In this document: positions 24,414-54,848 of the stretch, piece after piece
Layout of the letters: each line of letters starts with the position of its first letter
Position numbering within the stretch: position 1 is the stretch's first letter
Origin: Escherichia phage FP43
Sequence record: MN648445
Strand: one strand, 5' to 3'
Length of the DNA stretch: 64,000 bases
Program-made: the position numbers and the translations under genes
Notes under the pieces: generated by a model
Seen by the model: only the letters and a program-made list of their open reading frames with translations
Told to the model about the DNA's origin: nothing
Databases searched by the model: none

Positions 24414-27125
24414 ATGAAAGAATTTTACTTAACGGTTGAACAGATTGGTGATTCAATTTTTGAACGTTACATCGATTCTAATGGCCGTGAACGTACTCGT
24501 GAAGTAGAGTATAAGCCATCGTTGTTTGCACATTGTCCTGAAAGTCAGGCTACGAAATATTACGATATCTATGGTAAACCTTGTACTCGTAAATTATTCG
24601 CTAACATGCGTGATGCCTCCCAATGGATTAAACGCATGGAAGATATCGGACTTGAAGCACTTGGCATGGACGATTTCAAATTGGCGTATTTGTCTGACAC
24701 TTATAACTATGAAATCAAATACGACCATACAAAAATTCGTGTGGCTAACTTCGACATCGAAGTAACATCTCCGGACGGGTTCCCTGAGCCGTCACAAGCA
24801 AAACATCCGATTGATGCTATCACCCATTATGACTCAATTGATGACAGGTTTTATGTATTTGACCTTTTGAATTCTCCATACGGTAATGTAGAAGAATGGT
24901 CTATCGAAATTGCGGCTAAGCTTCAAGAACAAGGTGGTGATGAAGTTCCATCCGAAATTATCGATAAAATCATTTATATGCCGTTCGATAACGAAAAAGA
25001 ATTGTTAATGGAATATCTCAACTTCTGGCAACAGAAAACTCCTGTCATTTTGACTGGATGGAACGTTGAGTCATTTGATATTCCATATGTGTATAACAGA
25101 ATCAAGAATATTTTTGGTGAATCTACTGCGAAACGTTTATCACCACATCGTAAAACTCGTGTTAAAGTTATCGAAAACATGTATGGTTCTCGTGAAATCA
25201 TTACATTGTTCGGTATCTCTGTTCTTGATTACATTGACCTTTACAAAAAATTCTCTTTTACCAATCAACCGTCGTATTCTCTGGATTACATTTCAGAATT
25301 TGAATTGAACGTTGGTAAACTGAAATATGACGGCCCTATTTCTAAGCTTCGTGAAAGCAATCACCAACGATATATTTCTTATAACATCATCGACGTGTAT
25401 CGTGTATTGCAAATTGATGCTAAGCGCCAGTTCATCAACTTGAGTTTGGACATGGGTTATTATGCTAAGATACAGATTCAATCTGTGTTCAGCCCAATTA
25501 AAACATGGGATGCTATTATTTTTAATAGCCTTAAAGAGCAGAACAAGGTGATTCCACAAGGTCGTTCTCACCCGGTTCAACCTTATCCCGGTGCTTTTGT
25601 TAAGGAACCTATTCCAAATCGATACAAATATGTAATGAGTTTCGACCTTACATCTCTGTATCCAAGTATTATTCGCCAAGTGAATATTAGCCCAGAAACA
25701 ATAGCAGGAACGTTTAAAGTAGCTCCACTGCATGATTATATTAACGCAATCGCTGAACGTCCTTCAGATGTGTACAGTTGTTCTCCTAACGGCATGATGT
25801 ATTATAAAGACCGTGATGGTGTAGTTCCAACTGAAATCACTAAGGTCTTTAATCAACGTAAAGAACATAAAGGTTACATGCTTGCGGCTCAACGTAATGG
25901 TGAAATAATTAAAGAGGCGTTGCATAATCCTAATCTTTCTGTTGACGAACCATTAGATGTTGATTATCGTTTCGACTTCAGCGATGAGATTAAAGAAAAG
26001 ATTAAAAAGTTGTCTGCTAAATCTCTTAATGAAATGTTGTTTAGAGCTCAACGTACTGAAGTTGCAGGTATGACTGCACAAATTAACCGTAAATTGCTCA
26101 TCAACTCGCTTTATGGTGCACTTGGAAACGTTTGGTTCCGTTATTACGATTTGCGTAATGCTACTGCAATCACAACATTTGGTCAAATGGCTTTACAGTG
26201 GATTGAACGTAAAGTTAATGAATACCTGAATGAAGTTTGTGGTACAGAAGGCGAAGCTTTCGTTCTTTATGGTGATACAGACTCTATTTACGTATCTGCT
26301 GATAAAATTATCGATAAGGTTGGTGAATCTAAATTCCGTGATACCAACCATTGGGTAGACTTCTTAGATAAGTTTGCTCGTGAACGTATGGAACCGGCTA
26401 TTGATAGAGGTTTCCGTGAAATGTGTGAATACATGAATAATAAGCAACATTTGATGTTCATGGACCGAGAAGCTATTGCTGGTCCTCCGCTCGGTTCTAA
26501 AGGTATTGGTGGATTCTGGACTGGTAAGAAACGTTATGCATTAAACGTGTGGGATATGGAAGGAACTAGATACGCTGAGCCTAAACTCAAAATCATGGGT
26601 CTAGAGACTCAGAAATCTTCGACCCCTAAAGCAGTACAGAAAGCTCTTAAAGAATGTATTCGTCGTATGCTTCAAGAAGGTGAAGAATCATTACAAGAAT
26701 ATTTTAAAGAGTTTGAAAAAGAATTCCGTCAATTGAATTATATTAGCATCGCGTCAGTATCTTCTGCGAATAACATTGCTAAATACGACGTTGGTGGATT
26801 CCCTGGTCCTAAATGCCCGTTCCATATTCGTGGAATTCTGACATATAACAGAGCTATCAAAGGTAATATTGATGCTCCACAAGTTGTAGAAGGCGAAAAG
26901 GTATACGTTCTGCCTTTACGTGATGGAAACCCGTTCGGTGATAAATGTATCGCATGGCCTTCTGGTACTGAAATCACAGATTTAATTAAAGACGACGTAC
27001 TTCATTGGATGGACTACACTGTTCTCCTTGAGAAGACATTTATTAAACCACTTGAAGGATTCACATCAGCAGCGAAACTCGATTACGAGAAGAAAGCATC
27101 TCTGTTCGATATGTTCGATTTTTGA
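24414..27125 (+). CDS. 43: DNA polymerase gp43 (family B)
   Basis: 903 aa; exo motif FDIEV, pol motifs DLTSLYPS and YGDTDS; N-terminus matches RB69-type pol from memory. Confidence 0.97.
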   Translation: MKEFYLTVEQIGDSIFERYIDSNGRERTREVEYKPSLFAHCPESQATKYYDIYGKPCTRKLFANMRDASQWIKRMEDIGLEALGMDDFKLAYLSDTYNYEIKYDHTKIRVANFDIEVTSPDGFPEPSQAKHPIDAITHYDSIDDRFYVFDLLNSPYGNVEEWSIEIAAKLQEQGGDEVPSEIIDKIIYMPFDNEKELLMEYLNFWQQKTPVILTGWNVESFDIPYVYNRIKNIFGESTAKRLSPHRKTRVKVIENMYGSREIITLFGISVLDYIDLYKKFSFTNQPSYSLDYISEFELNVGKLKYDGPISKLRESNHQRYISYNIIDVYRVLQIDAKRQFINLSLDMGYYAKIQIQSVFSPIKTWDAIIFNSLKEQNKVIPQGRSHPVQPYPGAFVKEPIPNRYKYVMSFDLTSLYPSIIRQVNISPETIAGTFKVAPLHDYINAIAERPSDVYSCSPNGMMYYKDRDGVVPTEITKVFNQRKEHKGYMLAAQRNGEIIKEALHNPNLSVDEPLDVDYRFDFSDEIKEKIKKLSAKSLNEMLFRAQRTEVAGMTAQINRKLLINSLYGALGNVWFRYYDLRNATAITTFGQMALQWIERKVNEYLNEVCGTEGEAFVLYGDTDSIYVSADKIIDKVGESKFRDTNHWVDFLDKFARERMEPAIDRGFREMCEYMNNKQHLMFMDREAIAGPPLGSKGIGGFWTGKKRYALNVWDMEGTRYAEPKLKIMGLETQKSSTPKAVQKALKECIRRMLQEGEESLQEYFKEFEKEFRQLNYISIASVSSANNIAKYDVGGFPGPKCPFHIRGILTYNRAIKGNIDAPQVVEGEKVYVLPLRDGNPFGDKCIAWPSGTEITDLIKDDVLHWMDYTVLLEKTFIKPLEGFTSAAKLDYEKKASLFDMFDF

Positions 27126-27165
27126 TATAATGCCATGGACGGTAAACTAATTAAATGAGAGAAAT

Positions 27166-27801
27166 ATGAAAACTACACCAATCACTATCGCTATTGACGC
27201 AATCGTAAAACAAGCTTCATCTCTTGCCACTATGGCTAAAGTAATTAGTCAAAACTCTGCCCGATATAATGCTATTCTTGAAACTCTTCGTCGCCCTGGA
27301 CTGAGTAATTATGAAAGCCGAGTAATTATTACAGGTGTTGGTAAGAACGCTAATATCGCAACTAAAGCTTCCGAGACTTTTGCTTCACTAGGTATTCCTA
27401 GCATGTATTTGAACACCGGGCATTATTCTCATGGCGACGCAGGATTTATTGCACCTAATGATGTATTAGTTCACATCAGTCGTTCTGGTAAGACTGAAGA
27501 AATGATAGGTGTTGCTAAACATCTTCGTATGATTCGTCCTCAGGTTAAACAGATTCTGTTACATTGTAACCCTGACATTCCGCAAGAATACGAAGCTCTT
27601 TTTGATTATACGTTCTGTACAGGCATCGCGGTAGAGGTTGATGAGAATTCTCTGGCTCCGACCATGTCCACTACATTGTTGTTAGCGCTTATCGATACGT
27701 TTGCTATCAACCTTTCGTCTGAACGTGGATTTACCTCTAATGACTTCCTTAAGTTCCACCCTGGTGGTGCACTAGGTGCCATGTTACGAGGCGAACAATG
27801 A
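27166..27801 (+). CDS. SIS-domain sugar-phosphate isomerase (arabinose-5-phosphate isomerase-like)
   Basis: 211 aa; ITGVGKNANIATK and SRSGKTEE SIS motifs; C-terminal FHPGGALGAML typical of KdsD/GutQ-type isomerases. Confidence 0.6.
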   Translation: MKTTPITIAIDAIVKQASSLATMAKVISQNSARYNAILETLRRPGLSNYESRVIITGVGKNANIATKASETFASLGIPSMYLNTGHYSHGDAGFIAPNDVLVHISRSGKTEEMIGVAKHLRMIRPQVKQILLHCNPDIPQEYEALFDYTFCTGIAVEVDENSLAPTMSTTLLLALIDTFAINLSSERGFTSNDFLKFHPGGALGAMLRGEQ

Positions 27802-27941
27802 AAGCAATAACAATAGGACTTTTACTATTGATGCTTGTCATGACTATCTACTGGAGCTTAACGGCTCCAGTAATGATTCCGACTCTTATAATCGGATGGA
27901 TTATGATTGGACTACAAGCAAAGTATGAATGCTTTAACTAG
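27798..27941 (+). CDS. small hydrophobic membrane peptide (47 aa), possibly Imm-like
   Basis: ATGA overlap with upstream gene; almost entirely hydrophobic. Confidence 0.3.
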   Translation: MKAITIGLLLLMLVMTIYWSLTAPVMIPTLIIGWIMIGLQAKYECFN

Positions 27942-27982
27942 AATAGTGTACGATACACCTACTTACCAATGAGGACCACAAC

Positions 27983-29668
27983 ATGAAAAAAGCTGTTATT
28001 CTTGGTGCTGGACTGGCAACTCGTTTGTATCCAATAACGCACCATATTCCTAAGGTGCTTGTTAACTATAAACAAGACACTATTCTGAGCAATTTGTATA
28101 CAATTTATTCTGACCTTGGCGCAGATGAAATTATTGTAGTAGTTCATTCAAAATTTGCTGAAACTGTTCGAGCTTATTGCGAGCAAGAAGGGTTCAATGT
28201 GACTATTCGTACAGTTGATGAAGCGTATGGTTCTGCTTATGCTCTTGCTAAATTATACAAAGATTTAGATGGCCATAACGTAATTGTTAACTGGTGTGAT
28301 ATTATTCCTGACTTTGGTTCATGGTCTTGGAATGTTAACGCAATCTATGTTAAGGGTGATGAATGTCGATATAATTTCGATGGTGAAAATATCACTAACG
28401 TAGGTTCAACAGGTGGTAATGTTGTAGGAATTTATCAGTTCAAAGACTGGGAATTCTACATGGGTTCTACTGATGAGGAAATTCACGAATACTGCAAAGG
28501 TCGTGATTTCGTAGAATTCCTTTACGGCAGTGCATTCAATAAATCAGAGCTTATGAATCTAATTGATTTAGGTGATATGCCTAAACTTGAAAAGGCTCAT
28601 GAAGTTCGTGAACTGAATCGTAGTTTTAATGCAGTTGAAATTGGCGAAGAAACTGTAACTAAATTCGCGTTAACCGAACAAGGTCGAGCTCTTCAAAAAG
28701 ATGAGATTTCATGGTATTTGAAAGTGAAATCAGATTCAGTTCCTCAGTTAGTTTCGGTAAATGAAAATAATTTTGAAATGGAACGTATTAAAGGTAAGCC
28801 GGCATTTGAATATATTAAATCCAAATCAAGTCTTGCTCGTCCACAAATTGTTGATGCAATTTTAGATGCACTGAAATTCAGCACGGACACTTATTTTGTA
28901 AGTCCTGAAACTGTTCGCCGTGATTTCACTAAAGAGTTCTATACGAAAGTTATTGATCGTTGTGAAAGCATTCAGCCATTGATTGATTCATTTGGTAAAA
29001 TCACACATGTGAACTACACTAAGATTGGACGTCTGAAGCCAATGTTGAAACAAGCTTTAGAACATCTTATTCGTTATCATAACCGTTCTCAGGGACAGTA
29101 CTCTGTTATTCATGGTGACCCGAACTTCAGTAATACTATGATTACCGATAACGGCGAAGTCAAGTTTATCGACCCTCGTGGATATTTTGGTGAAACCAAG
29201 ATTTACGGGCCAAAATTGTATGATGAAGCTAAAGTGCTTTATGCTGTTTCAGGTTATGATGAATTCAATGCTAATCCGACCTGGGGTCAGTTTACTATTG
29301 ATGAAACAACTTGTAATGTGACTATTAACATCAATCCATTAGTTTACAAATATGGAAAGATGAGTTCGTTTAACGAGTATCATCATTTGGCAGTAGCAAT
29401 TATCTGGATTGCATTAGGTGGTTATTTCAAGAATAATCCACTTAAAGCGGTTGCCGCATATTATAAAGGTATGGAACTTCTGACTAAGCAATTACGTAAC
29501 ATGGGCCGTGTACTTCAAGACGGCTCTATTAGTTATGACGTAGCAGAACCTGTAACGGCTACTCTGATTACAAAAAATCCTGGTAAATGGGTACTAACTG
29601 ATAAAGAAACTGGTGTTTCCTATCGTCCAATCGGCGGCGATATCACTCATCAATGGGAACGAATCTAA
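27983..29668 (+). CDS. bifunctional sugar-1-phosphate nucleotidyltransferase / sugar kinase (fusion)
   Basis: N-term MKKAVILGAGLATRLYPITHHIPKVLV (G-x-G-T-R-L nucleotidyltransferase signature); C-term HGDPNFSNTMI...IDPRG (APH/choline-kinase-like catalytic motifs). Confidence 0.6.
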   Translation: MKKAVILGAGLATRLYPITHHIPKVLVNYKQDTILSNLYTIYSDLGADEIIVVVHSKFAETVRAYCEQEGFNVTIRTVDEAYGSAYALAKLYKDLDGHNVIVNWCDIIPDFGSWSWNVNAIYVKGDECRYNFDGENITNVGSTGGNVVGIYQFKDWEFYMGSTDEEIHEYCKGRDFVEFLYGSAFNKSELMNLIDLGDMPKLEKAHEVRELNRSFNAVEIGEETVTKFALTEQGRALQKDEISWYLKVKSDSVPQLVSVNENNFEMERIKGKPAFEYIKSKSSLARPQIVDAILDALKFSTDTYFVSPETVRRDFTKEFYTKVIDRCESIQPLIDSFGKITHVNYTKIGRLKPMLKQALEHLIRYHNRSQGQYSVIHGDPNFSNTMITDNGEVKFIDPRGYFGETKIYGPKLYDEAKVLYAVSGYDEFNANPTWGQFTIDETTCNVTININPLVYKYGKMSSFNEYHHLAVAIIWIALGGYFKNNPLKAVAAYYKGMELLTKQLRNMGRVLQDGSISYDVAEPVTATLITKNPGKWVLTDKETGVSYRPIGGDITHQWERI

Positions 29669-30054
29669 TGCACCGTGTAGAAAACATGCTTAATCTTTGT
29701 TTTGATGTCGATGATTGTATAACAGAGTGGAATAACAATCGTGATTACGTGAACTTCAAACCAGACGTCGAAATGGTGTCTGCCATTAATGCCCTGTATG
29801 ATGCAGGGCATACCATAACGCTTTACACTGCCCGTGGTATGAAGTCGGTAGGTCCTGGTCGTATAGCAATTGACATTCTCCCAAGTCTGATTCAGAACTT
29901 GGAAAACATTGGTTTGAAGTACCATAATTTGCTAACACATAAACCAGTATATGATTGGATTATCGACGACAAAGCTATGCGTCCTGACGAATTCAAAGCT
30001 CTTATGAATAAAGGCGAATTCGAAACATTTAAATCATATAAACCAAATCTATAA
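29668..30054 (+). CDS. HAD-superfamily phosphatase
   Basis: FDVDDCIT motif I (DxDx[TV]); TAATG overlap with upstream kinase gene. Confidence 0.5.
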   Translation: MHRVENMLNLCFDVDDCITEWNNNRDYVNFKPDVEMVSAINALYDAGHTITLYTARGMKSVGPGRIAIDILPSLIQNLENIGLKYHNLLTHKPVYDWIIDDKAMRPDEFKALMNKGEFETFKSYKPNL

Positions 30055-30100
30055 TAATTTAAGTAAGACCTGCAAAAACCATCGCATCAATTAACGCGAG

Positions 30101-31273
30101 ATGCAAAAAAAAATGAATACTTTTAAAATCGGAACGAATTTTGATTTAGCTCTTCTTGATAAAATCGTAGAGCTCAATAAAACCTATCCTAATAGCTTGA
30201 TAAACGAAGTATATGGCTCTACAAGAGAAATGGCTTTTGTAGCAGCCAGACCTGATTTTAGGCTTCCTGACGTTGACAAAAAGATGTTAGAAGATTACGT
30301 TAAACGTTGTAACGAATTAGGTATTTGCTTTAACTATACACTCAACACGATAAATCCTGGTTCAAAAAGAGAACTAGTTGAGTGGAAGAAGAAAGCTATT
30401 CAGGATTATGTTCAGTATCTTTGGTCAATAGGCGTATGGCGTATTACTATCGCTAACCCTGTTGTTATGGAAATTGTTCGTGAAGTCAATAAAGATATTG
30501 AGATTGAAGTTTCAACAATTCTACATGTTGATGCTGTAACTCAAATCAAATACTTGCATGACCAATATAACATCAAAAAGGTCTGTTGCGGAATTCATAA
30601 GAACCGTTCAGTTTCTTTCCTGAAGCGTGCAGCAGAGTTTTGCAATAAGAACAATATAATATTTGAAGTTCTTGTAAATGAGTTCTGTTCTAATGCTGGT
30701 AAAGGGTATACAACACATTGTAGCTATCGTGACTCTTGCTATATTTTCCATAGTACTGATGTTACCGCTGATGATGCTAAATCCTTAAATGGATATCCTA
30801 TGCAGCACTGTATTAAAGCTCGTGATACAGACCCATTTAACTGGTTGAGAACTCGTTTTGTTCGTCCTCAAGATTTGAAACTTTATAATGATATTGGTAT
30901 CACTCAATTTAAAGTTTCAGGACGTACAGGTAGCACAGACTACATTTTGAAAGTTCTTGAAGCATACGCTTCTGAAAAGTTTGAAGGTAATTTGTTAGAA
31001 CTGTGGAAGCCTTTAGAGACTATTTTCACTCTTGAAAATGAGACTGAGTTTTCACATACAGTAAATATTGAAACCTCTTTGTTAGATGGCTTTTTAGAAA
31101 AAAGGTGGTTCAGACATCCAGATTTTGATTGTGCTAATGAAATCTGTGGGTCAACGTGTACATATTGTGAAAGGTATTATAAACGTCAATTATCTAAAAA
31201 CGGGTTAGCAGAAAACTCCATATCTATTATTGATATAACTAACTCTGATGACGCTTTGAGGTACCCGGAATGA
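30101..31273 (+). CDS. Cys-rich TIM-barrel-like protein (tentatively peptidase-U32-like; C-terminal C-x4-C-x3-C-x2-C cluster), possible Fe-S enzyme
   Basis: 390 aa; alternating beta/alpha pattern; CANEICGSTCTYC near C-terminus; alternative start at 30113. Confidence 0.5.
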   Translation: MQKKMNTFKIGTNFDLALLDKIVELNKTYPNSLINEVYGSTREMAFVAARPDFRLPDVDKKMLEDYVKRCNELGICFNYTLNTINPGSKRELVEWKKKAIQDYVQYLWSIGVWRITIANPVVMEIVREVNKDIEIEVSTILHVDAVTQIKYLHDQYNIKKVCCGIHKNRSVSFLKRAAEFCNKNNIIFEVLVNEFCSNAGKGYTTHCSYRDSCYIFHSTDVTADDAKSLNGYPMQHCIKARDTDPFNWLRTRFVRPQDLKLYNDIGITQFKVSGRTGSTDYILKVLEAYASEKFEGNLLELWKPLETIFTLENETEFSHTVNIETSLLDGFLEKRWFRHPDFDCANEICGSTCTYCERYYKRQLSKNGLAENSISIIDITNSDDALRYPE

Positions 31274-31509
31274 TTTCTAGAAAAAGTTTTAATTATAAAC
31301 TTAACGAAGAGATTTTGACTATGAAACTGAACACTAACGAACAAATTCTTAAAAAGGCCCTTATGGGCCTGTTTGAAACCAAAGCGGCTAAAGTGATTAA
31401 AGAACCTGTTCAATTGGAATACTACACTGATGCATTCCTTCATAGTGTTCTTGGAAGTATAGATTCTGAAGCTTTACGTTATATCAACATTGTCAAGAAA
31501 TTCAAATAA
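31270..31509 (+). CDS. small hypothetical protein
   Basis: 79-aa ORF, ATGA overlap. Confidence 0.35.
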   Translation: MISRKSFNYKLNEEILTMKLNTNEQILKKALMGLFETKAAKVIKEPVQLEYYTDAFLHSVLGSIDSEALRYINIVKKFK

Positions 31510-31568
31510 GCTTTACGAATTGAGTATATAATAAATTGTATTGAGGTAAACATGGAAAATATAACACA

Positions 31569-32267
31569 ATGAAATATATCAAAGCCGCAGATTTTCAAGC
31601 CGCATTTAAAGCAGTCAATCGTGAAATTTTAGAAAACCCCGAATTCGTAACTGATTCTCGTATTGGACGTTGTAATGAAATCGGGTCCATGACAGTAGTT
31701 GTTGACAATCCATCATCATTCAAAATGACCGACCCACGTATTAACCGCATCTCTTATGAATATGCCGAAGACTTCTGGAAGTTTATGATTTCTGGTGGTA
31801 CTGATGCAGAAGAAGCGTTTAAGGCATATCCTAATGTCGCTAAATTCATTTCTAAACCAAAATCAGATGCTTTGCCTGCGAACTTCAACACTTTCTACGG
31901 TCCTCGCATTGTGGCCCAATTACCAGCTCTTCTAAAAGAACTTAAAGAGAAACCTAACTCTCGAAGAGTTGTGTTCCAAATTCTAGAAAGTTCTGATCAG
32001 GCTTTGCTTGATTCAGACGAAACACTTGAATATCCATGTACTGACTCAGTGACTTATTATATTCGTGATGGTAAGCTTTATACCCACTGCCATATGCGTT
32101 CTCAGAACTGTGCTGTTGTTATGCAGTTGGATTTTTATCTCCAAGGAAAATTACTTCATTATATCGCTAACGAATGTGGTGTAGAAGTTGGTGATTATAC
32201 TCATACCATGGTAAGTGCCCATGTGTTTGAACGTGATTTTGATTATGTTAAAGGATTCCTTGACTAA
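31569..32267 (+). CDS. 42: dCMP hydroxymethylase-like (thymidylate-synthase fold), gene 42
   Basis: 232 aa; PNSRRVVFQI and CTDSVTYYIRDGKLY...MRSQN align with remembered T4 gp42 active-site region; syntenic. Confidence 0.75.
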   Translation: MKYIKAADFQAAFKAVNREILENPEFVTDSRIGRCNEIGSMTVVVDNPSSFKMTDPRINRISYEYAEDFWKFMISGGTDAEEAFKAYPNVAKFISKPKSDALPANFNTFYGPRIVAQLPALLKELKEKPNSRRVVFQILESSDQALLDSDETLEYPCTDSVTYYIRDGKLYTHCHMRSQNCAVVMQLDFYLQGKLLHYIANECGVEVGDYTHTMVSAHVFERDFDYVKGFLD

Positions 32268-33166
32268 TGGCTATTTTCCGCGTACCAATCTTAAGTATGC
32301 GGTCTTATGAAACTGGACAGTATGCTATCCTTAAGGATGGCAACTTCCAACTTCATTTGCACCGTGCTAATCCAGGTGATGTGATTACATATCCACGTAA
32401 TGCATCTGATATTAAAGAATGTGAACGTCTTTTCCCGGAATTTAAGTTTGTTCCATTATGGTATAAAGATAACGCGTATAACACTCGTAAATATTTCTGG
32501 TCTGAAAATGAATTTGTGGTTGATTCATTAATTGCTTATTATGATTGTGATTTTCTAATAACAGATATCACTGGATATGACGGCGCTTTTGATGTAGAAT
32601 TCAATTTCAATATCACGGCAGACCCTAATAAACCACGTTTTTATATTGACGAATTCTTAAAAACCGATATGTTGTCAGTTAATCGTTCACTTCAAACTAC
32701 TGTGTTGAATGAACGTCAAAAAGAAGTGCTGGTTAACGCCGGTGCAGATGTTAATAAGATTATCGTAACGCAGAAAGTTATACGTCCTTCCATCATGCAG
32801 CGTCTTGTAGGTGATTTGGCTCCTATTCATCTAGATGGTATTTTTCATCCATTTCGAATTAGTGACCCATGTTATCGTTTTGAACAAGTGGTTGAATGTG
32901 CAATTCAATTAGGACAACCGCTTTATATAACCGATCCAAATAATAGCTTTGACAGAAATAAGTATCCTGAAGAAGCGCTGATTCGAATTTTTAAACCAAC
33001 TAAAACTGAGTACTATCAAATTCTTAAAGGACGTCCGAAAATTCAATATTTCGAAAATCCTGAAGAAGTATTCCATCCAGGTCTTGGTGAGTTCATCTAC
33101 TTTAATGCTTTAATTTCTTCACCGTATAATATACCTAAATACGAAGATGTCGTAATCGAGGAATAA
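32267..33166 (+). CDS. hypothetical protein occupying the T4 beta-glucosyltransferase position
   Basis: 299 aa; TAATG overlap with gene 42; no motif recognised. Confidence 0.5.
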   Translation: MAIFRVPILSMRSYETGQYAILKDGNFQLHLHRANPGDVITYPRNASDIKECERLFPEFKFVPLWYKDNAYNTRKYFWSENEFVVDSLIAYYDCDFLITDITGYDGAFDVEFNFNITADPNKPRFYIDEFLKTDMLSVNRSLQTTVLNERQKEVLVNAGADVNKIIVTQKVIRPSIMQRLVGDLAPIHLDGIFHPFRISDPCYRFEQVVECAIQLGQPLYITDPNNSFDRNKYPEEALIRIFKPTKTEYYQILKGRPKIQYFENPEEVFHPGLGEFIYFNALISSPYNIPKYEDVVIEE

Positions 33167-33167
33167 A

Positions 33168-33716
33168 ATGGCTAAAATTATTTTAGTAGACGGCCCGGAT
33201 AATGCCGGTAAAACAACTTTCATTAATGACATAATGGAAATTAGTGAAAGATATGTGAAGATTGATTTCCCTAAACGAACAGTTGATGGACGTTTCGATG
33301 TTAAGTCTCGAAATGAAGTTGGCTGTTTCGAAACGATGTTGAATTATTTAGACCCTACTAAGATTTATCTGTTAGACCGTGGATATATTAGTAACTGGGT
33401 TTATGGACGTATTCGACAAGATGCGGACTCGGTTCTTGACGTTTATGAACAGGACTATGTTCGTCTTTGCCAAAACCATGATGTGTTCACAATTATTTTA
33501 ACACGTAACGAAATGACTGAAAGTTTTGAAGACGACCTTATTACTTTGTCTTCATTCGGTTTTAATACAGTCATTTCACATTTTGAAGAGTTTGCAATTC
33601 ATAACAAAATCCAAACGTATCAATTACTTAATCATGATGGTGCTAACAAAGTTATAGGATTTAATGCAAGCGAACGTAATGGTTTGATTACAGAAATCAT
33701 CAAATGGGCTCGTTAA
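33168..33716 (+). CDS. P-loop nucleotide/nucleoside kinase (thymidylate-kinase-like)
   Basis: Walker A GPDNAGKTT; LLDRGYISNWVYG resembles the TMPK DR[YH] motif. Confidence 0.5.
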   Translation: MAKIILVDGPDNAGKTTFINDIMEISERYVKIDFPKRTVDGRFDVKSRNEVGCFETMLNYLDPTKIYLLDRGYISNWVYGRIRQDADSVLDVYEQDYVRLCQNHDVFTIILTRNEMTESFEDDLITLSSFGFNTVISHFEEFAIHNKIQTYQLLNHDGANKVIGFNASERNGLITEIIKWAR

Positions 33717-33815
33717 GAGCCTATTTAAAGTTTTAAATGCTGTATAACCCTTAGTATATAATCGTTTTATCTTTTAAACATGAGTAAAATATAATGATGC
33801 CTATGGAAAAATACA

Positions 33816-34988
33816 ATGTCTGATTTAAAATCTCGTCTGATTAAAGCTTCTACTTCTAAAATGACTGCAGACTTGACTAAGTCTAAGCTGTTTAATAATC
33901 GTGATGAAGTCCCTACTCGTATTCCGATGTTGAATATCGCACTAGGTGGTGCTCTGAATGCAGGATTGCAATCAGGCTTGACTATTTTTGCTGCACCTTC
34001 TAAACACTTTAAAACGCTGTTTGGACTGACTATGGATGCAGCGTATATGAAGAAATATAAAGATGCAATCTGTTTGTTTTATGACTCGGAATTTGGTGCT
34101 TCAGAATCTTATTTTCGTTCAATGGGTGTTGATTTAGACCGTGTAGTTCATACACCAATTCAGTCCGTCGAACAACTTAAAGTTGATATGACTAATCAGC
34201 TTGACGCTATTGAACGTGGTGATAAAGTTATTATCTTTATCGATTCAATCGGTAATACTGCATCTAAGAAAGAAACCGAAGATGCATTGAACGAGAAAGT
34301 CGTAGGTGATATGTCCCGTGCTAAGGCACTTAAATCTCTGTTCCGTATTGTGACCCCTTATCTGACTATTAAAGATATTCCGTGTGTTGCAATCAACCAT
34401 ACAGCAATGGAAATCGGCGGACTATATCCTAAAGAGATTATGGGTGGTGGTACAGGTATTCTTTACTCTGCTAACACTGTATTCTTTATCTCTAAACGTC
34501 AGGTTAAAGAAGGTACAGAATTGACCGGTTATGACTTCACGTTGAAAGCAGAAAAATCTCGTACAGTTAAAGAGAAATCTACTTTCCCAATCACGGTTAA
34601 TTTTGATGGCGGTATCGACCCATTCAGTGGCTTGTTAGAAATGGCAACTGAAATTGGATTTGTTGTTAAGCCTAAAGCCGGTTGGTATGCTCGTGAATTC
34701 CTTGACGAAGAAACAGGTGAAATGATTCGTGAAGAGAAATCGTGGCGTGCTAAAGCTACTGATTGTGTAGAATTCTGGGGACCGTTGTTTAAACACAAAC
34801 CTTTCCGAGATGCAATTGAAACTAAATATAAACTAGGTGCTATCTCTTCTATTAAAGAAGTTGATGACGCTGTTAACGACCTTATTAATTGCAAAGCAAC
34901 AACTAAAGTTCCTGTTAAAGCTTCTGATGCTCCGTCTGCAGCAGATATAGAAAACGACCTTGACGAAATGGAAGATTTCGATGAATAA
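33816..34988 (+). CDS. uvsX: RecA-like recombinase UvsX
   Basis: 390 aa; MSDLKSRLIKASTSK...; matches remembered T4 UvsX throughout. Confidence 0.95.
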   Translation: MSDLKSRLIKASTSKMTADLTKSKLFNNRDEVPTRIPMLNIALGGALNAGLQSGLTIFAAPSKHFKTLFGLTMDAAYMKKYKDAICLFYDSEFGASESYFRSMGVDLDRVVHTPIQSVEQLKVDMTNQLDAIERGDKVIIFIDSIGNTASKKETEDALNEKVVGDMSRAKALKSLFRIVTPYLTIKDIPCVAINHTAMEIGGLYPKEIMGGGTGILYSANTVFFISKRQVKEGTELTGYDFTLKAEKSRTVKEKSTFPITVNFDGGIDPFSGLLEMATEIGFVVKPKAGWYAREFLDEETGEMIREEKSWRAKATDCVEFWGPLFKHKPFRDAIETKYKLGAISSIKEVDDAVNDLINCKATTKVPVKASDAPSAADIENDLDEMEDFDE

Positions 34989-37866: not shown

Positions 37867-38235
37867 ATGAAAAAATTAATCGCTTTAGCAATGGTATTTG
37901 GATTAACCGGATGCGGTGCTCATGGCTTTATCCCTAATAACGTTGGCCAATTGATTTACAATCCGAATGTTAAACAGTATGACCAACCTAAAGTTGAAGT
38001 GGAAGACCCGGTTACTGTAGGTAATCGAATGATTCAAGCTGATGCCCATGCTCAACGTTATCGTGATTCTGATACTATAGCATTGACAAAAGAACAACGC
38101 GTTAAAGAACATTGTCTACAGGCTACTGAAATCGCATTCATTCGCTATGTTGAAACAACGGGTAAAGAGCCTACCCAGAAACAAATCGCGAATAACTACG
38201 TCCGGTGTATTGAACGTTTAAACAAATTTAATTAA
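37867..38235 (+). CDS. putative lipoprotein
   Basis: Signal peptide with lipobox LTGC (MKKLIALAMVFGLTGC). Confidence 0.5.
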   Translation: MKKLIALAMVFGLTGCGAHGFIPNNVGQLIYNPNVKQYDQPKVEVEDPVTVGNRMIQADAHAQRYRDSDTIALTKEQRVKEHCLQATEIAFIRYVETTGKEPTQKQIANNYVRCIERLNKFN

Positions 38236-38296: not shown

Positions 38297-38545
38297 ATGG
38301 AATTATTCGTAGCTAGTTCAGTAGCAGTTTTAATCGCAGGTATTGGTTCAATCATCATTTACATGTTGCCTTGGGTAATCGCACTTATTCGTGGCACAAA
38401 AAGCACAACAGCAATCTTCTTTGTATCTTTACTCTTTAACTGGACGATGGTTGGTTGGATTGGAACTTTAATTTGGTCTATCGTTGCCGAAAAGAAATCT
38501 TCTCAGCAGCCTCAACAAGTAATTATTATTCGCGAAAAAGAATAA
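38297..38545 (+). CDS. small membrane protein
   Basis: 82 aa; two hydrophobic helices. Confidence 0.45.
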   Translation: MELFVASSVAVLIAGIGSIIIYMLPWVIALIRGTKSTTAIFFVSLLFNWTMVGWIGTLIWSIVAEKKSSQQPQQVIIIREKE

Positions 38546-41584: not shown

Positions 41585-42106
41585 ATGGCACACTTTAACG
41601 AATGTTCACAACTTATTTCTGGTGTTGATAAAGCAGAAGAAGCTTATTTTAATGCTCTGATTCACGAAGATAAAGACCCACTGCAGGTAATGCTTGATAT
41701 GCAGAAATCTTTACAGGTTCGTCTGGCAAATGACAAGCCTGAACATAACAAACATCCTGATGAATTGGCTACTGCTGGTGATGTTGTTGATTGGCTGCGT
41801 AATCAGAAAGATTATATTGATGATGAATTCCGTGAACTGCTGACTTCACTTGGTGGTATGAGCAATGGTGAAAAAGCCGCTAGCAGTGTATGGAAGCCAT
41901 GGAAAGCACAACATGCTGAATATCGAAATCGTCGTATCGATGAACTGTCTCCTGAAGACCAGCTTGAAATTAAATTTGAAATGATTGATATTCTGCATTT
42001 CGTTCTGAACATGTTCCAAGGTCTTGGTCTTTCTGCTGAAGAAATCTTTAAACTTTACTACTTGAAAAACCAACACAACTTTGAACGTCAGGATAATGGT
42101 TACTAA
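41585..42106 (+). CDS. 56: dCTP pyrophosphatase gp56 (MazG-like)
   Basis: MAHFNECSQLISGVDKAEE...; resembles remembered T4 gp56; syntenic next to 61. Confidence 0.8.
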   Translation: MAHFNECSQLISGVDKAEEAYFNALIHEDKDPLQVMLDMQKSLQVRLANDKPEHNKHPDELATAGDVVDWLRNQKDYIDDEFRELLTSLGGMSNGEKAASSVWKPWKAQHAEYRNRRIDELSPEDQLEIKFEMIDILHFVLNMFQGLGLSAEEIFKLYYLKNQHNFERQDNGY

Positions 42107-53747: not shown

Positions 53748-54848
53748 ATGAAAGTTATGTTTATCCCATCTCGCGCAGTCCCATTTAACCCAGAACGTGT
53801 ACAAGGTGGTCTTGAAGCAGTACATTTAAATGTATTGAAATATCTTGTGTCCATCGGTGCTGATATTGATTATATCGGCTTTGATAATGACACGTTTGGT
53901 GACTGGAAGGTTAATCATCATCCTGTTGGTCATCTGACTAAATTCAGTCTAGGTATGAGTTATACTATGGCTCGTAAGATTGTTGAACTAGCCGGCATCC
54001 ATGAATACGATTTTGTTGTTACTATGGAACCGACCAAACTAACCGTTCAGGCAATTAAAGACGCAGGTCTCTCTAAAGTTCATAAGAATTTTATGGCAAC
54101 ACCATTTGAACCGGTATCTCGTGGCATTGTTCAAATTTGGGACCAGACTATTCAAATTCATAAGAACGGTGGTAAGAGTTATGCTCCTACTAAAGCCTTC
54201 CGTGAATTTGAACGCAAATATTGTTATATGACTTCAGGTCTGACTGACAAAATTGATTATGATTATTGGCGAGCAAATCCGTTGTTTGAAGCCGAAGATT
54301 ATCCGGTTATTTGTTTGAATGAGAAACCTGAAGTTCTTCCGGCGACTGATCTGATTATTAGTGCACAACGTTATGACACTAAAATGCGTCGTACTGATGT
54401 TGCTCTTGAAGCGATTAAAGCACTAGGCGAAAATGGTGCAGGATACTGTCCTAGTAAATGGGCACCACCAGCTAAATATCCTGTTATTATTGATGCTCCA
54501 CACAGTGAAATCATGGAACGTCTTAAAACAGCTAAAGCACTTATCAATACGTGTCCTGACACGGGTACGGTAGAGAATAGTTCTATTGAAGCCATCTCTA
54601 AAGGTGTCCCTGTGATTCAGTTAGTTTTTAAGGATTATCCGCACGCGACATTCGAATATGACCCAGATACTGTGCGTGTAGAAATTGATTCCTCTACTCC
54701 TAAGAAAGAAGTAGTTGCGCTTTACACAAAAGCTGTATTAGAATTCACTGACACATACGAAGCTCGAGTTAAACGTGCTGAAGCAGTATGGAAGAAGTAT
54801 AACCGAGATGCAGTTGTTGCGATGTGGGATAAAATCTTCACAGCGTAA
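53748..54848 (+). CDS. putative GT-B fold glycosyltransferase (candidate DNA hmC glycosyltransferase)
   Basis: 366 aa; N-terminal MKVMFIP...GGLE and C-terminal TGTVENSSIEAISKGVPVI resemble GT-B donor-binding region; lies between 39 and rIIA. Confidence 0.5.
   Translation: MKVMFIPSRAVPFNPERVQGGLEAVHLNVLKYLVSIGADIDYIGFDNDTFGDWKVNHHPVGHLTKFSLGMSYTMARKIVELAGIHEYDFVVTMEPTKLTVQAIKDAGLSKVHKNFMATPFEPVSRGIVQIWDQTIQIHKNGGKSYAPTKAFREFERKYCYMTSGLTDKIDYDYWRANPLFEAEDYPVICLNEKPEVLPATDLIISAQRYDTKMRRTDVALEAIKALGENGAGYCPSKWAPPAKYPVIIDAPHSEIMERLKTAKALINTCPDTGTVENSSIEAISKGVPVIQLVFKDYPHATFEYDPDTVRVEIDSSTPKKEVVALYTKAVLEFTDTYEARVKRAEAVWKKYNRDAVVAMWDKIFTA

Follow-up and report, generated by a model that had tools for sequence, protein, structure and literature searches.

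In the 64,000-nucleotide (nt) stretch of Escherichia phage FP43 DNA examined here (sequence record MN648445; the whole stretch is referred to as the window), the genes at positions 27,166 to 31,273, downstream of the DNA polymerase gene, are likely to form the sugar-donor half of an arabinosyl-5-hydroxycytosine DNA hypermodification system, together with a U32-family protein proposed to be an oxygen (O2)-independent hydroxylase. We are highly confident in what the three genes of the sugar route are predicted to be and to do. The module has already been published (Thomas 2018; Lee 2026; also He 2026 and Mahler 2025), and the U32 gene is its sole unexplained residue. For this gene, represented in phage RB69 by gp50, we propose an Fe-S, prephenate-dependent, O2-independent hydroxylase of pyrimidine C5, an assignment that we rate slightly above even; its product is most likely not a sugar enzyme. 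An earlier reading of this DNA from its letters alone (the sequence-only reading), which had seen a sugar-nucleotide module for hydroxymethylcytosine glycosylation, is partly supported as a whole. The open-reading frames (ORFs) of the interval, with lengths in amino acids (aa), are:

27166-27801, + strand: predicted SIS arabinose-5-phosphate isomerase (RB69 gp55 homologue), 211 aa, C-terminus FHPGGALGAMLRGEQ
27798-27941, + strand: hydrophobic small ORF, 47 aa, its start overlapping the SIS stop codon by 4 nt
27983-29668, + strand: predicted bifunctional enzyme (RB69 gp52:53, HY126 AfhE-like), 561 aa, intact
29653-30054, + strand: predicted small HAD phosphatase (RB69 gp51, AfhF-like), 133 aa, DxD motif FDVDDCIT
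30101-31273, + strand: U32-family Cys-rich TIM-barrel protein (RB69 gp50), 390 aa

The window derives from a Mosigvirus. The module interval is 99.6% identical in DNA to phage p000v and is covered to at least 80% in 152 phage records, most at 95-99.6% DNA identity; since this many records carry the interval, its genes are not chance ORFs. The ORF listing of the window places all four enzyme-like genes described in the sequence-only reading between gene 43 and "gene 42", on the + strand and where that reading had put them. The module ORFs are tightly packed or overlapping and lie downstream of the polymerase gene (24414-27125), whose product is recognisably RB69-type. Gene order corresponds one-to-one with RB69ORF055c-045c, with synteny between gene 43 and uvsX. 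Proteins of RB69 or other Mosigvirus members share 99-100% of residues with the polymerase, U32 and ORF003c homologues of the window, and identity to RB69 proteins was 92.7-100% where measured (rIIA, topoisomerase, ORF003c, U32). This near-identity to the RB69 system bears out the earlier view of a sugar-nucleotide module for non-glucose cytosine glycosylation, with arabinose as the sugar, in an RB69-like phage. The gene order of T4 likewise confirms that only imm.1 and imm lie between genes 43 and 42 there, and the absence of the T4 beta-glucosyltransferase holds for the 64-kb window, in which no beta-gt homologue was found (best tblastn match E 1.9). The composition profile showed no discontinuity in GC (guanine-cytosine) content or skew that would flag the module as a recent insertion.

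Profile hidden Markov model (HMM) searches bear out the families that had been named for the three sugar genes (SIS, a nucleotidyltransferase/kinase fusion and HAD), the kinase region weakly. The isomerase, which occupies the same position as RB69ORF055c, matches Pfam SIS (E 9.6e-10), NCBIfam KpsF/GutQ (TIGR00393, E 8.5e-32, model positions 2-153 of 268) and KdsD (E 3.4e-30), as well as PDB entries 3etn (E 9.7e-25), 2xhz (E 2e-18) and 5uqi. Its 211 aa comprise the SIS part only, with no tandem CBS domains, and its score is 110.8 bits against an NCBIfam cutoff of 203.7. The predicted reaction is ribulose-5-phosphate to D-arabinose-5-phosphate. In the 561-aa protein, residues 3-99 match Pfam NTP_transferase (E 1.3e-9), with NCBIfam matches to sugar-1-phosphate nucleotidylyltransferases (E down to 1.3e-13) and a PDB match to 1jyk (E 2.4e-5), and the C-terminus shows weak kinase matches at 308-409 and the motif HGDPNFSN. 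By analogy with the functions given in PMC13326640, which relays He et al. 2026, its C-terminal APH/choline-kinase-like domain is assigned as an arabinose-5-phosphate 1-kinase and its N-terminal domain as a UDP-arabinofuranose (UDP-Araf) pyrophosphorylase. The HAD protein matches NCBIfam TIGR01689, "capsule biosynthesis phosphatase" (E 1.9e-13), and is identical to PDB 9iqw at 128 of 129 residues. Its true start is probably the second ATG, at 29668, which agrees with the RB69 annotation and with the protein construct used for the 9iqw crystals; there is a 1-nt overlap with the upstream stop codon, which suggests translational coupling.

These assignments build on earlier work with RB69. RB69 DNA was found to carry arabinose by Thomas et al. 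2018 (PMC6024577), who originally named the base arabinosyl-hydroxymethylcytosine, showed RB69 ORF053c and 052c to be a single 561-aa gene, and put ORF055c and ORF53_52c forward for UDP-arabinose synthesis. Lee et al. 2026 (PMC13326640) assigned gp55, gp52:53 and gp51 to UDP-arabinofuranose synthesis. In the part of He et al. 2026 relayed by PMC13326640, the AfhE kinase domain turns arabinose-5-phosphate into arabinose-1,5-bisphosphate, AfhF (HAD) takes off the 5-phosphate to give arabinose-1-phosphate, and the AfhE N-terminal domain then makes UDP-Araf. In the window, the SIS enzyme would thus convert host ribulose-5-phosphate to D-arabinose-5-phosphate, the kinase domain at the C-terminus of the 561-aa protein would phosphorylate C1 to give arabinose-1,5-bisphosphate, the HAD phosphatase would remove the 5-phosphate before nucleotidyl transfer, and the N-terminal nucleotidyltransferase domain would form UDP-arabinofuranose. 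The route via a free sugar in the sequence-only reading has to be given up on the same relayed account, in which the kinase precedes the phosphatase and the intermediate is a bisphosphate; no free sugar intermediate would arise.

The acceptor and transfer genes lie downstream of the module:

31569-32267, + strand: thymidylate-synthase homologue (RB69 gp48), the "gene 42" of the sequence-only reading
32267-33166, + strand: putative DNA arabinosyltransferase 1, GT1 (RB69 gp46:47), intact 299-aa ORF at the T4 beta-gt position
33168-33716, + strand: P-loop thymidylate-kinase-like (TMK-like) nucleotide kinase (RB69 gp45), Walker A GPDNAGKTT, weak dTMP kinase match
41585-42106, + strand: dCTP pyrophosphatase (dCTPase; T4 gp56-like), sharing 65% identity with the dCTPase annotated in Shewanella phage Thanatos-2
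53748-54848, + strand: predicted second DNA arabinosyltransferase (RB69 ORF003c/gp3), between the topoisomerase gene and rIIA

The thymidylate-synthase-like (TS-like) protein matches Pfam Thymidylat_synt (E 1.2e-15) and shares 227 of 232 residues with PDB 9iqu; for it and the HAD protein taken together, identity to solved structures (9iqu/9iqc/9ir2 and 9iqw) is 98-99%. The TS-like protein shows 64-85% identity to its counterparts in other arabinosylating phages, with 25% identity to T4 gp42 and 21% to E. coli ThyA. From the near-identity to 9iqu and the activity of the RB69 homologue, it is assigned as a flavin- and O2-dependent 5-hydroxy-dCMP synthase, not a T4-type hydroxymethylase. RB69 gp48 carries flavin and makes 5-hydroxy-dCMP from O2, as found by 18O2 labelling (PMC13326640), and mass spectrometry (MS) and nuclear magnetic resonance (NMR) identified the RB69 base as 5-hydroxycytosine carrying one or two arabinoses, the sugar being joined straight to C5 by an ether bond (PMC13326640). 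The 5-O-arabinosyl linkage was confirmed in another Mosigvirus (NP), and the earlier hydroxymethylcytosine assignment was called erroneous (PMC13390438). The sequence-only reading therefore erred in two of its terms: the acceptor is 5-hydroxycytosine instead of hydroxymethylcytosine (PMC13326640, PMC13390438), and the neighbour that it named as dCMP hydroxymethylase gene 42 is far closer to 9iqu (about 98%) than to T4 gp42.

The transfer genes are less richly matched by sequence. GT1 gave no Pfam, NCBIfam or PDB sequence match; RB69 gp46:47 was assigned as an arabinosyltransferase by structure comparison, and Table 1 of the same paper lists gp45 as "nucleotide kinase" (PMC13326640). Sequence search likewise found no solved structure for the TMK-like kinase or for U32. 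The product of 53748-54848 is 99.5% identical over 366 aa to RB69 ORF003c, for which an arabinosyltransferase role has been proposed (PMC6024577, PMC13326640), so that two DNA arabinosyltransferases are predicted in the window. In the resulting scheme, the TS-like flavoenzyme would convert dCMP and O2 to 5-hydroxy-dCMP, kinases and dCTPase would channel this into DNA, the dCTPase removing dCTP so that only the modified nucleotide enters, and the two glycosyltransferases (32267-33166 and 53748-54848) would decorate the C5 hydroxyl with one or two arabinoses.

The U32 protein matches Pfam Peptidase_U32 (PF01136; E 7.4e-11, 42.2 bits versus a gathering cutoff of 22.4). Its AlphaFold2 model has a predicted local distance difference test (pLDDT) score of 93.3, and its best PDB match is 5d88, a U32 TIM barrel (E 2.9e-7, template modelling score 0.71 on the target). 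In the Foldseek comparison with the PDB, 5d88, itself uncharacterised, is the only U32 protein, the other top-50 matches being unrelated TIM-barrel and other enzymes. Of the earlier description of a Cys-rich, TIM-barrel-like fourth enzyme of the sugar route, the barrel stands and the place in the route does not: U32 is no evident part of that route, because it is absent from the equally complete clusters of Dhakavirus and Acinetobacter phages.

An alignment of 111 U32 homologues shows ten cysteines and E194 with little or no variation. E194, C207 and C213 are invariant, and hhalign pairs them with E161, C169 and C176 of RlhA; these residues of RlhA, and E162/C170/C177 of TrhP, are essential (PMC6599085, PMC5727448). 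In hhalign comparisons with three E. coli paralogues (RlhA, TrhP and UbiU), the profile of the phage U32 clade matched RlhA with 85% probability (E 6e-6, 202 columns), TrhP with 14.5% and UbiU with 6.7%. RlhA makes 5-hydroxycytidine (ho5C2501) in 23S rRNA independently of O2 (PMC5727448); TrhP makes 5-hydroxyuridine (ho5U34) in tRNA, with the O2-dependent TrhO as its partner (PMC6599085); and UbiU/V act on ubiquinone precursors, taking the oxygen for hydroxylation from prephenate, no U32 protein having so far been reconstituted in vitro (PMC10990095). The published notices of RB69 gp50 mention "homologs among peptidases" (PMC8056088), and the Discussion of PMC13326640 cites RNA pyrimidine-hydroxylation pathways without connecting them to gp50.

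The third and fourth canonical Fe-S cysteines are absent at the aligned positions of the phage protein, where C196, C237 and a C-terminal CX4CX3CX2C are candidate ligands. The invariant cysteines include C196, C237 (aligned near UbiU C232) and C344/C349/C353/C356, and the C-terminal Cys region may bind a second cluster or complete the first. RlhA also needs C-terminal cysteines. Residues 344-356 (31130-31170), C-x4-C-x3-C-x-Y-C, also hold a CxxxCx(aromatic)C triplet like the cluster-binding motif of radical-SAM proteins.

The genomic context of U32 in isolated phages may point to prephenate. A U32 gene was present in 221 phage records, and in 54 of these a small chorismate mutase (type II) gene adjoins U32 or sits between U32 and the TS-like gene. 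These 54 are non-Mosigvirus phages of Serratia, Klebsiella, Yersinia, Proteus, Enterobacter, Erwinia, Edwardsiella, Providencia, Pectobacterium, Morganella, Kosakonia and Shewanella, together with E. coli phage EcS1. The phage chorismate mutase matches Pfam CM_2 above cutoff (E 1.7e-11) and keeps EcCM residues R11, R28, K39, E52, S84 and Q88, with R51 not kept. The two genes often overlap by 4 nt, and their adjacency persists in Shewanella phage Thanatos-2 despite a rearranged cluster order. The product of chorismate mutase is prephenate. The linkage would fit prephenate use, since prephenate is the oxygen donor of U32 hydroxylation (PMC10990095).

U32 is also the most conserved cluster protein across genera, at 79-89% identity compared with 42-72% for AfhE and 46-69% for GT1. 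Two clusters nonetheless lack it while being otherwise complete, those of Acinetobacter phage Maestro and E. coli Dhakavirus Bp7. AfhE was found in 57 Acinetobacter phage records; since the listed organisms with U32 do not include Acinetobacter, no more than about two of the 57 could carry U32. Acinetobacter is an obligate aerobe.

U32 homologues at 44-58% identity are abundant in metagenomes. Distant loci, with U32 at most 58% identical, were gathered from encoding contigs, IMG/VR and GTDB genomes to give 36 distinct clusters; genes were called and then searched with HMMs built from the window proteins, and homologues were counted within 10 kb of U32. The thymidylate-synthase family HMM was broad (ThyA and T4 gp42 included) and was run in six frames. 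GT1 homologues were found in 22 of the 36 clusters (E 1e-24 to 1e-81), a TMK-like kinase in 18, AfhE in 12 (E 1e-59 to 1e-164), SIS in nine and chorismate mutase in six, while the thymidylate-synthase family appeared in one. The near absence of this family where GT1 and the kinase are frequent is most simply read as U32 occupying the hydroxylase slot, which in RB69 belongs to the TS-like enzyme. Recurrent gene orders were "TMK-like, GT1, U32, PolIII-alpha", "GT1, SIS, AfhE, HAD, U32" and "U32, (chorismate mutase), GT1, AfhE, HAD ... TMK-like", and the other direct neighbours of U32 included dCMP deaminase, dUTPase/dCTP deaminase, UDG, TET-associated glycosyltransferase (TAGT) and UDP-galactopyranose mutase. 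At eight loci U32 was accompanied by only the kinase and GT1, with no sugar-activation genes.

In two metagenomic phages a class I-beta DAHP synthase gene lies directly downstream of U32 (L014:9145-9891 and L033:9384-10130), its product scoring 221-237 bits as DAHP synthase versus 61-67 bits as KDO8P synthase in NCBIfam. DAHP synthase is the first enzyme of the shikimate pathway, and this adjacency is a second, independent link of phage U32 to the shikimate/prephenate pathway. Genome bins with the U32 clade belonged mostly to strictly anaerobic taxa, namely Oscillospiraceae, Romboutsia, Erysipelotrichales, Gastranaerophilaceae, Tannerella and Phocaeicola (including Phocaeicola faecalis).

Two further contexts were seen among the distant loci. 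In a second conserved arrangement (L011/L069 and L075-L078, from Bacillota, Tannerella, Phocaeicola, BRC1 and Woesearchaeota), a GP88-like protein, a 414-435-aa methyltransferase and a ~265-aa protein are encoded upstream of U32; in L011 the genes that come next encode a 5'(3')-deoxyribonucleotidase, a deoxynucleoside kinase, a radical SAM protein, a second U32 and a nucleoside deoxyribosyltransferase. Such a context looks like that of a pathway that first hydroxylates and then O-methylates deoxynucleosides. In L016 (9098-10000) and L041, uncultivated phages of ~45-60 kb, U32 lies between GT1 and a TAGT side composed of TET-associated glycosyltransferase (E 4e-8), dUTPase/dCTP deaminase and UDP-galactopyranose mutase, with no TET or TS gene nearby, which suggests furanosyl-hexose decoration of a hydroxypyrimidine.

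On our proposal, U32 would take oxygen from prephenate and so give a second, O2-independent route to the 5-hydroxypyrimidine acceptor in hosts growing anaerobically. In enterobacterial T4-like phages it would serve as a reserve for the 5-hydroxy-dCMP synthase, which depends on O2 and flavin, and in many uncultivated phages of strict anaerobes it would be the sole hydroxylase, within minimal modules of U32, nucleotide kinase and glycosyltransferase, where a phage chorismate mutase or DAHP synthase would often supply the oxygen donor. That this U32 protein and its phage relatives broadly are O2-independent, prephenate-dependent deoxypyrimidine C5 hydroxylases, and with that the first U32 enzymes assigned to DNA modification, we regard as evenly balanced. 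The searchable literature shows no link of phage U32 to prephenate or chorismate mutase, and the hydroxylase hypothesis is unpublished as far as that literature shows.

Several observations weigh against this proposal. The window, like Mosigviruses in general, has no chorismate mutase (the best fragmentary match, with a domain E of 0.31, is spurious), and neither has Klebsiella phage Marfa. E. coli Dhakaviruses such as Bp7 have the cluster without U32, so some phages with facultatively anaerobic hosts can dispense with the protein. The four-Cys [4Fe-4S] motif CX6CX15CX3-4C is half kept, with only the first two Cys aligned. The scarcity of the thymidylate-synthase family holds within 10 kb of U32, and such a gene could lie farther out on the contigs; moreover, about a third of the distant loci have U32 in other contexts, notably the methyltransferase-U32 arrangement of Bacteroidales and other bins. 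Table 1 of PMC13326640 labels RB69 gp50 "sugar or heterocycle reductase", and He 2026 and Mahler 2025, which lie outside the searchable literature, may assign or exclude a role for U32. The sugar route itself, known for this phage from its genes alone, draws its functions from homologues.

The alternatives concern either the module or the U32 protein. That the module serves hydroxymethylcytosine glycosylation, with a gene-42 hydroxymethylase, a route from pentose phosphate through free sugar and sugar-1-phosphate to an NDP-sugar and the Cys-rich protein as fourth enzyme, would agree with the base name of Thomas et al. 2018 (PMC6024577), with the TS-like gene in the T4 gene 42 position and with the free-arabinose wording still found in Table 1 of PMC13326640. 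It is very improbable given the NMR and MS results (PMC13326640) and PMC13390438, which put arabinose directly on C5 and already refute it for RB69, the identity of the TS-like protein to 9iqu (98%) against 25% to T4 gp42, and the action of the kinase on arabinose-5-phosphate and of the phosphatase on arabinose-1,5-bisphosphate in what PMC13326640 relays of He et al. A place for U32 in the sugar branch, as a reductase, epimerase or tailoring enzyme on arabinose phosphate or UDP-arabinose, or else as a heterocycle reductase, has more in its favor: the gene sits between the HAD phosphatase and the TS-like gene, it adjoins SIS, AfhE and HAD homologues in many metagenomic loci, TIM barrels are frequent among sugar-phosphate enzymes, and the Table 1 label points the same way. 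We consider it unlikely, since the Maestro and Bp7 clusters are otherwise complete without U32, Maestro having been reported with arabinosylated 5-hydroxycytosine (PMC13326640). The eight loci that combine U32 with kinase and GT1 have no sugar-activation genes, and the chorismate mutase and DAHP synthase linkage has no rationale in sugar chemistry. We also know of no U32 member that acts on sugars.

An RNA substrate is suggested by the precedents for U32 proteins, for which RNA is the only known nucleic-acid substrate (PMC5727448, PMC6599085). U32, with chorismate mutase where present, would then hydroxylate tRNA (ho5U34) or 23S rRNA (ho5C2501) and tune translation during infection, as would fit the best alignment of the clade being with RlhA. 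T4-like phages do encode tRNAs. This is decidedly unlikely when the U32 gene lies inside the DNA-modification cluster in every genus examined, its metagenomic neighbours are GT1, TMK-like kinase, dCMP deaminase, dUTPase and the TAGT glycosyltransferase, the 390-aa protein lacks the RlhA DUF3656 and TrhP C-terminal domains, and the host already has RlhA and TrhP. Finally, the family name and the "peptidase" and "collagenase-like protease" annotations in GenBank and JGI would make the protein a genuine peptidase or collagenase unrelated to DNA modification. Its conserved neighbourhood of nucleotide and DNA modification, its ten invariant cysteines and the hydroxylation roles of the characterised E. 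coli members (PMC5727448, PMC6599085, PMC10990095) make this most improbable of all. An O2-independent pyrimidine hydroxylase is the reading that we prefer for U32.

The module explains how RB69-like phages build a sugar donor absent from the host, shielding their DNA from restriction enzymes and CRISPR. The published hydroxylase requires O2, yet these phages attack gut bacteria, and the role proposed for U32, if true, would account for the replication of hypermodified phages without oxygen, including in the anoxic gut. It would extend prephenate-driven hydroxylation beyond RNA and quinones to DNA precursors, and would provide a soluble, single-subunit, strongly conserved U32 enzyme with a simple nucleotide substrate to a field that lacks an in vitro U32 assay (PMC10990095). 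Many uncultivated phages of anaerobes would also be likely carriers of glycosylated hydroxypyrimidine DNA, which would bear on phage therapy, sequencing bias and new restriction systems.

Three other features of the window belong to this region or to its T4 counterpart:

31270-31509, + strand: ORF049 (RB69ORF049c), 79 aa, Mosigvirus-specific, in the slot taken by chorismate mutase in related genera
37867-38235, + strand: imm.1 homologue, 34% identical to T4 imm.1, downstream of gene 41
38297-38545, + strand: imm homologue, 65% identical to T4 imm, downstream of gene 41

Since imm.1 and imm are present and relocated ~10 kb downstream, the module is no simple replacement for them. ORF049 and the 47-aa ORF at 27798-27941 went unmentioned in the sequence-only reading, the former (31270-31509) lying just outside the interval and the latter within it. 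ORF049 homologues share only 73-96% identity, compared with ~99% for U32, and some are truncated to 47-58 aa; its model (pLDDT 64) gave no fold match, and it may be a decaying or replacement gene. Its candidacy as a chorismate mutase was rejected, with no Pfam match at E 10, no BLASTP alignment and an hhalign probability of 0.1%. The 47-aa ORF probably encodes a real small membrane protein, because Serratia phage LC53 has a 62% identical, 47-aa "transmembrane" ORF at the corresponding place; another ORF, of 36 aa, is annotated there in the RB69 record. Homing endonuclease genes occur inside the cluster in LC53 (L001:4352-4990, NUMOD3), between HAD and U32, and in Proteus phage PM2 (L005:7205-7888), between U32 and the chorismate mutase gene. 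A scan of 26900-33900 for promoters, which also covered terminators, gave 20 promoter-like sites versus 27.9 in shuffled sequences, and the T4 late-promoter motif TATAAATA was absent from the cluster in the same scan. A sigma-70-like site at 30028-30055 (+ strand; TTTAAA, 16 nt, TATAAT) precedes the U32 start codon by 46 nt; because the region is poorer in such sites than shuffled sequence, it is not evidence of a promoter.

Compared with known systems, the window is a member of the group formed by RB69 gp45-gp55 and the HY126 Afh cluster, with the same genes in the same order and no substantive difference. The RB69 record (AY303349, L002) splits 053c/052c and 047c/046c, both of which are intact single ORFs in the window (27983-29668 and 32267-33166), in agreement with the two single-base sequencing errors described for RB69 (PMC6024577, PMC13326640). 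The phage isomerase shares the SIS domain and C-terminal HPGGALG with KdsD, GutQ and KpsF, and resembles the single-domain Bacteroides fragilis enzyme (PDB 3etn), whereas KdsD and GutQ differ by their tandem CBS domains; its product would feed UDP-Araf, while that of KdsD/GutQ/KpsF feeds Kdo or capsule synthesis. The glucosylation of hydroxymethylcytosine in T4 follows a common logic (a TS-family enzyme acting on dCMP, dCTPase and kinases, and DNA glycosyltransferases) in the same neighbourhood, from gene 43 to uvsX. The T4 base is 5-hydroxymethylated, however, in contrast to the 5-hydroxy base here, and T4 gp42 is only 25% identical to the TS-like enzyme. T4 uses host UDP-glucose, whereas the window phage has no beta-gt homologue; its sugar donor is not a host metabolite, and the phage therefore encodes donor synthesis.

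For U32, the phage protein has the TIM-barrel core in common with RlhA, TrhP and UbiU/V and keeps the essential Glu and two Cys of RlhA and TrhP, but identity is only 18-20% and the Cys spacing differs. It is without the RlhA DUF3656 or a U32 C-terminal domain and has a unique C-terminal CX4CX3CX2C. The known substrates of these proteins include pyrimidine C5, whereas the presumed substrate of the phage enzyme is a deoxynucleotide or DNA. E. coli also provides a precedent for pairing an O2-dependent hydroxylase with a U32 protein for one product, in TrhO with TrhP and in UbiI/H/F with UbiU/V. The counterpart in the window would be the TS-like and U32 genes, which lie ~300 bp apart, a redundancy suggested by gene content; unlike in the E. 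coli pairs, the O2-dependent enzyme stands by itself in some phages whose hosts are facultative anaerobes.

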